Virus record (IMG/VR): IMGVR_UViG_2671180747_000017 | Length of the DNA stretch: 64,000 nucleotides | From: a virus | Taxonomy: Duplodnaviria > Heunggongvirae > Uroviricota > Caudoviricetes | Strand: one strand, 5' to 3' | Shown: positions 12,001 to 15,000 of the stretch, in pieces | How positions within the stretch are numbered: the stretch's first letter is position 1 | Layout of the letters: each line of letters begins with the position of its first letter | Position numbers: made by a program

Positions 12001-15000
12001 AAACAGCGCGTCAGGCGACGAACTGAATCGTTTTCCGTTGATGTCAGAGGGCACGGCAAAGGCCTGTACAGATGAGTTTATCCGGGATGTTCCGTCGTTC
12101 ACCGAAAAATATGCTGGTGCAGTGACCCTTCCACCTCTACGGGCCGCCAGTCGTGAACTTCGTCGCGCCAAAAAACAGGTCCAGAAGTGGGAGCGTGTCT
12201 GTGCTGCACTACGTGAGCTGAATAAACACCGGGAACTTGTCATGCAGATTACCGATTCATCCAGCAGTATTGCATCGGAAAAGTGATAACTGGAGAGCTT
12301 ATGGCAAAAGTATTTACACCCGAACAGCGGGAAGAACTGAAGGCACGTATTGTGGAGCTCGTGCGCCTGAATGGTCGGGGAACGTTCAGGCAACTGGCTA
12401 CTGAAACCGGAGTCAGCAAGACAGCTGTCAGACGTTTGTCCAGAGAACTGGTTGTCAGTGGCGCTATATTCGACTCAGGTTATGGTTTATTCCCGTCTGA
12501 TCAGGCGCGTAAGGACTGGCAAAATGCCCGCAAAAAACTCTCGAGAGCAAAGGCAAAGAAACCGGTTGTTATTGACCCTGGTCTTATCCGGGCATTACCT
12601 GATGGGGAAATCCGGCGCTACGACAGACGCTACAACATAATTTGTCGCGAGTGCCGTAACAGCGAAACGATGCAGCGTGTGCTGGCATTCTGGCGGGGGA
12701 GTGCAGAGGGATTGATGTTCTCCCCGTCGTGAATGACGGGGGCTTACGTGTTCAGAAAAGTGATTCATATAGAGGCTGAATCTGATCTTTTTTGTTCACG
12801 TCTGGCTGCCACCATTGCAGGCAGAGTGAAGGCGTAGACTAAAAACATTTCGGTAAAACTCAGGATCTGGCTTGCCTCAATTGGTGTGAAAACTTCATCT
12901 GTATGAACTGCTTTATTGGCATCAATTCGTACAATATGAGCCCATTCCTTCATCTGTTCAGTGATCAGCCCTTTTTTGTAAATCATCTGAATACGTTGCG
13001 ACAGCGATTCTTTTCCTGCTTCATCGCCGAGCAGTTTTTTCGTGGAGATATCGAGGACTCTGCGACAAAGAATTACCACTGTGTCGTACCGCCTCCTCTG
13101 TAAATCCTCTTTTGCCTCAACAAAAGTACGGTCTGCAACCGGGGGCGTATATTCTGGTGCGGTAATTTTTTTGACCGCAGGATAGATCTTGCGGAAACGG
13201 TACTGGCTATTTCCTGAAATCAGAATATCGAGGTCTTTTTTCTGGCTTTCCGCCATGGGGCCGTGATAGTGGTCTGATGGGATTTCAACAATAGCAACAC
13301 CTCCTCGATGACAACTTCTGCATACAAAAGCGACGTTAAAAAGAGGTGTTTTTTCAATTTGTTTTTCGGCAAATGCCTCAATAACAGCTCGCTCTTTTAA
13401 ACAGTGTGGGCATGTAATGTCAAAGGAGACTAAACTCATGGATATTCCTCTCGAAATTAAAGAAATTAACGAAATCATTGAGGTTACTGATCGCCCCGAG
13501 TTTACCCTCATGCGTCGTTATGAAACAGGAACCGACGAACAAAAATACATCATGGTTGCAGCATTGGCTGTGATGGCGATAGAAAGGGAGCGGAGGGAAA
13601 AGGACGTAATGGTTATTCCGGCGAGAAATGATTCACCGGATTTGAGATGGCAGGATCCGGAGTGGGATGTGGCAATCCGGTGATTGATATTTCTCTGGGG
13701 TAAAGCGCCGCCAGAATGACGGCGCGGTGGTTAAGCATGAGGCGAAATTTCTGCCGGGCGGTATTTTGTTGAGAGATGAGATACGTCAACTTCTCTTTCC
13801 GCTTTTTCAAGGCTCCATGCCGTCTGGAGACGAATCCATGAAGACGGAGTTCCACCCAGGACAGCAGCGAGACGAACAGCCATTTCAGGAGATATTGTCG
13901 CATTACCTGAAACCAGTCGCTGAACAGTGGAAGGCGCGACATCAAGCGCTCTTGCCAGTTCCCTGATTCCAATATTCTGATCTTCCAGAATATCAGCAAT
14001 AATTTCTCCGGGATGAGGGGGGTTAAACATCGCCATTAGTGGTAATCCTCGTAGTTAAGAATATAAGCATCGCCGTTCCGAAACTCGAATGTGATTCTCC
14101 AGTTACCGGAGACGGTGACAGACCATGTATCGGATCTGTCACCCTGCAACTGGTGCAGCCTGTACCCGGCAAGGTTAATATCATCAATGATTTCAGCTTG
14201 ATCTATTACCTGAAGGCGCGTTCTCAGGCGTTTAACGTGATTGGGATTTACGCCTGATGCATTTCCTGTTTCAAAGAAACGTTGAAGTCCTTTGTGTTTC
14301 CAGCTTTTTATCATGCTTGTTTCCTGTTGCGTTACGCGAATCATTATAGCGACTGTTGTGTAATGCGCAACGGTTGTTTGACAAAAATAGGTATCCGGGA
14401 TTATATTCTTCGCACGGTCGAGTTGACCGTCGGGATTGGAACCCCGGATAGAGACCGCGACAAACACACGCCGCGAGCGTGTTTTTTATTGTCGTATGCA
14501 CGCGCACATCTGAATTATGGTGGGGCGCATGGGGGAGCTGAAAAGCTCGCCGGTCGGTTTCCCGGTAGTTCCAACCCTGTGCGTCTCACCACCCGATGAT
14601 TGGAACCTTACGGTGGTGATAGTTTAGAAACCACTAGAGGGCGTCATTATGACAACTCAAGTTTCTGTTGAAACTCTTTCCCCGATCACCCACAACCAGA
14701 TCCCAGTTATTACAACTGAACTTCTTGCCCAGCTTTACGGCACAGATGTAACTAATATTCGCAAAAACCACAGCCGAAACCATGAACGTTTTGTTATTGG
14801 TAAACATTATTTTTTGCTGGAAAGTGCAGAATTGCGTGAGTTTAAGCACAGAGTGTCTTTAAGTCACTCTGTGACAATCGCCCGTAACGTTCGCTCCCTC
14901 ATCCTCTGGACAGAACGCGGCGCAGCCCGTCACGCAAAAATGCTCGAAACCGATCGGGCTTGACGTTATAGGTCGTTACTTGTAGATTTATCTTTGTGAG

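Follow-up and report, generated by a model that had tools for sequence, protein, structure and literature searches.

The 64,000-nucleotide (nt) stretch of the Caudoviricetes virus record IMGVR_UViG_2671180747_000017 (hereafter the window, to which all positions refer) carries an accessory region between its replication genes and ninB, which we examined from around 12600 to 14600. A segment identical to this region sits in a Shiga toxin 1a (Stx1a) prophage. The replication side is made of genes encoding a DnaC-like protein, a DUF1627 protein (11516..12286), and a DUF977 protein (12283..12732), while ninB lies on the other side (16845..17255). In between, three open reading frames (ORFs) run on the minus strand: higB (14314..14036), higA (14036..13731), and a gene encoding a protein of 224 amino acids (aa) (13439..12765). 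Their coordinates and their placement between the replication genes and ninB were correctly given in the initial annotation of this locus. A small ORF of 81 aa (13438..13683), encoded on the plus strand, i.e., the strand of the phage early operon, sits in the gap of 291 base pairs (bp) between higA and the 224-aa gene. By analogy with RAZR (ring-activated zinc-finger ribonuclease (RNase)), the 224-aa protein is probably a divergent prophage-borne variant of the RAZR type with a role in defence. The small gene that overlaps its start is the one new, testable feature of the locus.

The 224-aa gene starts at 13439 and not at an upstream ATG at 13511, a choice on which RefSeq and the invariance of M1 across 30 homologues concur, and a GAGG Shine-Dalgarno sequence (13450..13447, minus strand) lies 7 nt 5' of this start. 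The N-terminus of the protein consists of a predicted Cys4 zinc ribbon (residues ~1-55) followed by an extra beta/alpha segment up to residue ~95, and the C-terminus of a DUF4145/HEPN domain (~97-222). The initial annotation had likened the C-terminal domain to DUF4145-type proteins, and the Pfam profile PF13643 indeed matches residues 118-197 above its gathering score (E-value (E) 3.8e-9). It had also read a CxxC...CxxC pattern and an R-x7-H motif, both of which are borne out. The former corresponds to C10 (13412..13410), C13 (13403..13401), C40 (13322..13320), and C43 (13313..13311), the first knuckle being CPHC. The latter is the predicted catalytic motif R171-I-D-A-N175-K-A-V-H179 (R-x3-N-x3-H; 12903..12929, minus strand), where the Arg and the His of the DUF4145/HEPN domain are eight positions apart. 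The four cysteines, R171, N175, and H179 are invariant in an alignment of the 30 homologues, which are 36-98% identical.

The AlphaFold2 model of the 224-aa protein is confident, with an overall predicted local distance difference test score (pLDDT) of 89.7, and confirms the HEPN suspicion of the initial annotation: the protein has the all-alpha HEPN fold of Pfam clan CL0291. The zinc-ligand cysteines are at the turns between predicted beta strands, as in a beta-hairpin zinc ribbon, and profile searches gave weak, non-significant matches to RPB9 zinc ribbons (E 0.25). We found no family for the protein in NCBIfam, and a single-sequence phmmer search of the PDB returned nothing, even at E 10. 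Among the neighbouring genes we found no nucleotidyltransferase, the antitoxin that a HEPN-MNT toxin-antitoxin (TA) system would have next to it. DUF4145 is a HEPN family of clan CL0291, whose fusions with zinc ribbons and occurrence in double-stranded DNA viruses were noted in 2013 (PMC3710099).

The initial annotation recognised no characterised system in this protein, but there is a characterised analogue in RAZR, the former PD-T7-4, though it is a remote relative. PD-T7-4 was reportedly described by Vassallo et al. in 2022. To our knowledge, no bacterial immune protein before RAZR had been shown to become active by wrapping around phage ring assemblies, and we know of only two close homologues that have been studied. 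RAZR (Zhang et al., Nature 2026; PMC13017515; PDB 9Y9C, 9Y6U) couples, in one polypeptide, an N-terminal Cys4 zinc ribbon to a C-terminal DUF4145/HEPN domain, whose catalytic residues are R146 and H154; the mutation of either abolishes defence. RAZR polymerises into a 24-mer around phage portal or Gp77 rings, which leads to non-specific cleavage of single-stranded RNA and to abortive infection (PMC13017515). Phage specificity is set by the zinc-finger domain, the most variable part of the protein, and RAZR alone is not toxic and does not need a partner (PMC13017515).

We compared the 224-aa protein with a RAZR(Ec) sequence rebuilt from two database fragments, which is 100% identical to PDB 9y9c chain OA. 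The two proteins are 27% identical over 109 residues spanning the linker and the HEPN domain (BLASTP E 1e-5). In this alignment RIDANKAVH faces RIVGNQAVH of RAZR, placing R171, N175, and H179 opposite R146, N150, and H154. The comparison of the 224-aa profile with RAZR using hhalign gave a probability of 85% (E 6e-6) in the HEPN domain only, and the search of the PDB with the same profile retrieved 9y9c only at E 0.077. Both are single polypeptides of ~220 aa. From the N- to the C-terminus they comprise a Cys4 zinc ribbon (CPHC...CSHC in RAZR; predicted, with CPHC...CxxC, in the 224-aa protein), a linker, and a DUF4145/HEPN domain whose R-x3-N-x3-H motif has identical spacing. Both are carried on mobile elements, and in both the zinc ribbon and linker vary between alleles. 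The fit to RAZR thus comes from the same N-to-C architecture, the CPHC/CxxC pattern, the R-x7-H spacing, and the aligned HEPN catalytic residues. Judged on these features, the 224-aa protein appears to have the RAZR architecture and probably shares its chemistry.

Several observations weigh against a RAZR-like function. The R-x7-H spacing falls outside the canonical Rx4-6H motif of HEPN proteins; it is a DUF4145 variant that is found in RAZR as well. The catalytic loop (residues 172-179), modelled as a loop rather than a helix, is the only stretch of the AlphaFold2 model with pLDDT <50. This may mean that the active site takes shape only once the protein oligomerises or, alternatively, may be a modelling artefact. 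The likeness to RAZR is remote and limited to the HEPN domain, and the zinc ribbons were left unaligned by hhalign. The PD-T7-4 model of PADLOC gave only a partial match (E 1.3e-3, 16 bits), and Foldseek matched HEPN proteins in the PDB, with 9y9c not among the best 50. The N-terminal module has ~95 residues, compared with ~65 in the RAZR zinc-finger domain, and because it is ~30 residues longer the trigger and the mode of assembly may differ from those of RAZR. The genomic contexts are also different: the 224-aa gene is antisense within lambdoid prophage operons whereas RAZR proper adjoins an integrase, and the start-overlapping small ORF, usual beside the 224-aa gene, is absent from RAZR-proper loci. 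Finally, PHROGs labels the 224-aa family "DNA binding protein". By sequence, the protein falls outside the PD-T7-4/RAZR family proper, as a remote relative in a separate clade.

A RAZR-proper homologue of E. coli, P0087, present at three loci, was of little use as a zinc-finger comparison. It is 83% identical to RAZR over a 98-residue query fragment, but it is N-terminally shortened, with only 168 aa, a stop codon shortly upstream, and half a zinc ribbon, of which it keeps only the second CxxC knuckle. This shortening suggests that many database "RAZR homologues" of 146-169 aa are without a complete sensor domain.

The 224-aa gene has been replaced by a different allele in another E. coli prophage, where the flanks are 99-100% identical to those of the window and the 224-aa allele is 70% identical. 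The swapped patch extends from the start codon to around codon 190, with 60-80% DNA identity and no gaps. The synonymous divergence (dS) is 0.74 within the patch and 0.04 in the last 34 codons, and the zinc ribbon, the linker, and the HEPN domain have ratios of non-synonymous to synonymous divergence (dN/dS) of 0.1, 0.66, and 0.28, respectively. A dS of 0.74 with dN/dS below 1 indicates replacement by an old, diverged allele. On the same values we rejected an origin of the 70% allele by a diversity-generating mechanism or by hypermutation. Allele swapping is common among defence genes.

The small ORF (RefSeq WP_000354190; phrog_8371, E 7.5e-56) starts at an ATG (13438..13440) that has two bases in common with the ATG of the 224-aa gene (13439..13437), within the palindrome CATG. 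Its AAGGAG Shine-Dalgarno sequence (13423..13428) is 9 nt 5' of the ATG and lies within codons 4-6 of the opposite gene. Among 57 distinct 224-aa alleles drawn from IMG/VR and assemblies, 35 have a CATG-overlapping homologue of the small ORF and the other 22 have none. The former range from E. coli to Paraburkholderia, where the overlap is kept though the 224-aa homologue is only 36% identical. The small-ORF homologues are 54-93 aa long and share a core of ~55 aa, DRPEFTLMxRYET...QK...ALIG.LIE.DR, or in fuller form DRPEFTLMQRYET...QK...ALIGKLIE.DR. Their pairwise mismatch at codon positions 1, 2, and 3 is respectively 0.36, 0.31, and 0.55, and the single-base codon differences comprise 7140 synonymous vs 5026 non-synonymous changes. 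This pattern shows that the small ORF is selected as a protein, beyond being the promoter region of the opposite gene.

The AlphaFold2 model of the small protein has a three-helix core (pLDDT ~90) and a disordered tail; the alignment used comprised 8 sequences. A fold search with it gave no informative or specific structural match, and we found nothing in Pfam, PADLOC, or NCBIfam. A word-indexed protein search retrieved near-identical E. coli copies only, and an exhaustive search of 1.84 billion protein representatives gave 6 matches at E <= 0.001. Hence, the small gene is mostly overlooked by gene callers. In all annotated contexts that we examined it points the same way as the phage early operon, and it is absent where the 224-aa homologue sits in the late (lysis-terminase) region. 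From this orientation only, one would expect the small protein to be made only in the lytic programme. The pattern of conservation suggests that the small ORF is the real, conserved partner of the 224-aa gene, rather than HigBA.

Of 44 loci, 8 retain the small ORF but not the 224-aa gene. In some E. coli prophages (phage phiSTEC1589-Stx1c, 1686..2355 of the locus, and eight other loci) the 224-aa gene is replaced by unrelated ORFs without a Pfam match. The RNase-less small ORF is 85 aa long, its N-terminus being extended by four codons, and we found this form on 170 contigs.

Could the zinc-ribbon/HEPN gene and the small ORF constitute a two-gene system? The small protein would then be dedicated to inhibiting the RNase, as a self-immunity factor, an antitoxin, or an anti-defence protein, and would let the carrier or related phages replicate. 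The CATG overlap and the homologues beside 35 of the 57 alleles, kept even where the RNase is only 36% identical, speak for it, as do the purifying selection on the small ORF and its constant direction along the early operon. The loci where it stands alone are what one might expect of an anti-defence gene. Yet 22 alleles are without it, including those located between lysis and terminase genes, and RAZR itself needs no partner and is not toxic alone. Moreover, across the allele swap described above, where 30% of the RNase residues differ, the small ORF is 96% identical, and the fold search gave nothing specific. These points argue against a strictly allele-specific partnership, and we consider the dedicated inhibitor rather unlikely. 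They leave room for the small ORF to act more generally in lytic growth, as a control on the RNase or a counter to it. A more explicit version would be an undescribed module of divergent genes with a common CATG start, in which the lysogen makes only the RNase and the three-helix protein of the early operon neutralises or re-tunes it, which would keep the portal or ring proteins of the phage itself from triggering suicide. This version is also doubtful in our view. Were it true, the small ORFs found without the RNase would be anti-RAZR-like counter-defence genes.

The genomic distribution of the 224-aa gene bears on another reading, in which the protein is a regulatory, nucleic-acid-binding, or RNA-processing factor serving the life cycle of the phage and not immunity. 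This would agree with the PHROGs label, with the frequent binding of nucleic acids by zinc ribbons, and with a family found almost only in lambdoid prophages. The gene occurs in Stx phages from E. coli and Shigella, as well as in Yersinia, Serratia, Enterobacter, Pantoea, and Paraburkholderia prophages. However, in every annotated context with a readable operon direction it stands alone and antisense within the prophage operons, and its GC content is only 42-45%, compared with 51-57% for the replication genes, which are traits of an accessory gene (a moron) and not of a core one. Its position varies, since some homologues lie between the replication genes and ninB and others in the lysis-terminase region, and most related Stx phages lack it. 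As the invariant HEPN catalytic residues also match those of known defence RNases, a phage factor of this kind seems quite improbable.

The two other minus-strand genes are the clear TA pair seen by the initial annotation. The higB toxin (92 aa, RelE-like) matches PF05015 with 77 bits (cutoff 27; E 1.4e-21) over residues 3-92 and positions 1-91 of the 91 of the profile, as well as phrog_3066 (E 6e-37). The higA antitoxin (101 aa, HTH_3) is a TIGR02607 equivalog (88.4 bits vs a cutoff of 47.7; E 2e-25) and matches PF01381 (E 4.9e-10). The genes are in the toxin-first (reverse TA) order, with the higB stop and the higA ATG overlapping by one base at 14036. A candidate higBA promoter found by eye (TTGCGC-16 nt-TATAAT; 14343..14370, minus strand) lies 28 nt 5' of the higB ATG and is under the threshold of the promoter scan. 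Just past the higA stop, the sequence contains a GC-rich hairpin (GCGCCG-9 nt-CGGCGC then TTTA; 13705..13725, minus strand), for which the terminator scan made no call because the T run is too short. Taken together, HigBA is predicted to be an ordinary type II TA pair.

An IsrK-like unit (14378..14487, plus strand) is divergent from the higBA promoter region. It contains a match to the Hfq-binding small RNA (sRNA) IsrK (RF01394; 14414..14487, plus strand; 55.9 bits vs a gathering score of 50), flanked by a near-consensus promoter-like TTGACA-18-TATATT (14378..14407) and a terminator-like hairpin (14466..14482). In the Gifsy-1 prophage of Salmonella, IsrK controls an antirepressor/anti-Q locus (PMC4825925).

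Megablast split the accessory region at 13706..13728, at the GC-rich hairpin past higA, into matches to 12600..13728 and to 13706..14600. The left piece spans the end of the DUF977 gene, the 224-aa gene, and the small ORF and matches Shigella phage 75/02 Stx at 100% identity; in that phage the TA pair beside the DUF4145 gene is Gp49/HTH_3 instead of HigBA. For the right piece, there are two-part matches at ~98% to many other records of Stx-converting phages, and no DUF4145 gene lies under the match in these. The DUF4145 gene stands beside an antitoxin plus a small ORF in PhiR12_3, whereas in phiSTEC1589 the slot is occupied by TumE/HVO_A0114 and the small ORF is kept but the DUF4145 gene is lost. 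In another relative the TA slot holds a remnant of HigA plus ParD. The TA pairs adjoining the DUF4145 gene in different phages are not homologous to one another. Conversely, phage GER2 has the same HigBA pair, 98-100% identical, without an adjoining DUF4145 gene. The slot to the right of the small ORF is a site of TA exchange, as observed in four loci, with the junction at the shared hairpin (13706..13728).

We then considered the 2-kb region as a whole. No phage record covered 80% of this query. A coverage of at least 80% was reached in 17 of 5,426 complete E. coli genomes, among which at least 14 have the full segment and the lowest three (83% coverage) are without higB. HigBA adjoins only two of the 57 distinct 224-aa alleles, and no TA neighbour was found beside the homologues in the Atlantibacter-type, Serratia, Yersinia, Pantoea, Enterobacter, and Paraburkholderia prophages examined. 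The initial annotation had proposed that the TA pair and the RNase make one arrangement, i.e., a three-gene defence cassette with HigB/HigA as sensor or regulator and the zinc-ribbon/HEPN protein as effector. Its genes, strand, and location stand, and their proximity on one strand, the E. coli genomes with the full segment, and the constant presence of some TA pair in the neighbouring slot of related E. coli phages are in its favour; its contiguity fails on the opposite-strand gene within the 291-bp gap, its unity fails on the mosaic junction and on TA neighbours that are non-homologous or absent, and we regard it as highly improbable and largely refuted by comparative genomics. The comparisons indicate a prophage accessory-gene hotspot of independent modules, where HigBA and the RNase do not form a unit.

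The explanation that we favour, and hold to be reasonably probable, combines independent modules: an ordinary HigBA, a 224-aa RAZR-like abortive-infection RNase, and a small ORF on the early strand. HigBA would be expressed from its own promoter and act like other members of its family, in which HigB cleaves ribosome-bound mRNA once the labile HigA is lost. The lysogen would transcribe the RNase gene, in the direction opposite to that of the early operon, which is repressed. RAZR is triggered by large ring assemblies, portals among them, and if the analogy holds the Cys4 zinc-ribbon module would sense a protein of a superinfecting phage. The ensuing oligomerisation could then position the DUF4145/HEPN domains such that R171 and H179 form an active RNase, which would degrade RNA, stop translation, and abort the infection. 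The small protein would be produced only during the prophage's or phage's own lytic programme, when transcription of the early operon would also pass antisense through the RNase gene. Its likeliest role would be the control of the RNase locus in the phage's own lytic growth.

If the protein is active, its clade would extend the RAZR principle to new triggers, via a different and larger sensor domain, and it could help to explain superinfection exclusion among Stx phages. The small gene is a directly testable candidate for how a prophage keeps the abortive-infection gene it carries from disrupting its lytic cycle.

The window contains other features. We identified one match to the C4 antisense RNA (RF01695) and four to sRNA-Xcc1 (RF02221), at 14513..14596, 15106..15189, and 16015..16104 on the plus strand and at 61082..61167 and 61618..61702 on the minus strand. 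Each of the plus-strand matches is just 5' of an ORF6N/BRO antirepressor-like gene (14649..14963, 15229..15891, and 16146..16790), and this array looks like tandem units of a C4-type RNA and an antirepressor. The first ORF6N gene (14649..14963, plus strand) is truncated to 104 aa in comparison with its paralogue at 15229..15891, and in the identical prophage RefSeq records it as a pseudogene without the C-terminus. Further away, there is a strong match to the sRNA STnc100 (RF02076; 21288..21501, plus strand; 195 bits). A replication-initiator-like protein of 360 aa (9665..10747, plus strand) has a low-complexity (QE)n run (SSQEQEQEQEQERD) and a proline/glutamine-rich linker. ARAGORN found no tRNA genes in the whole window, although the identical segment lies in a Stx1a prophage.

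How do these modules compare with known systems other than RAZR? The HigBA pair of the window is not notably different from other HigB/HigA type II systems, with which it shares the toxin-first order, the stop/start overlap, the full-length PF05015 toxin, the TIGR02607 antitoxin, and a prophage- or plasmid-type distribution; its slot is one where TA families replace one another. HEPN-type domains are presumed RNase effectors, as in the 224-aa protein, in the C-terminal domain of type I restriction HsdR, in BxaP (PMC10799925), in Ishtar1 (bioRxiv 2026.07.06.735840), and in DS-38 of E. coli (PMC13092281). BxaP and Ishtar1 have an N-terminal HEPN domain followed by other C-terminal domains. DS-38 (DefensePredictor, WP_001313577, Table S8 of PMC13092281) was considered as the identity of the 224-aa protein and rejected, as it has 366 aa and the opposite domain order, with an N-terminal HEPN domain and then several C-terminal zinc fingers. 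The order zinc ribbon then DUF4145 is found in none of these four proteins.

A parallel to a proposed role of the small ORF is found in the BstA system of prophages. BstA causes abortive infection, and self-immunity is provided by the anti-BstA (aba) element. Under this proposed reading, both loci would consist of a prophage abortive-infection gene and, within the locus, a second element that could protect the lytic growth of the phage itself. They differ in the nature of this element, since aba is a DNA element inside bstA whereas the small ORF of the window is a divergent protein-coding gene.

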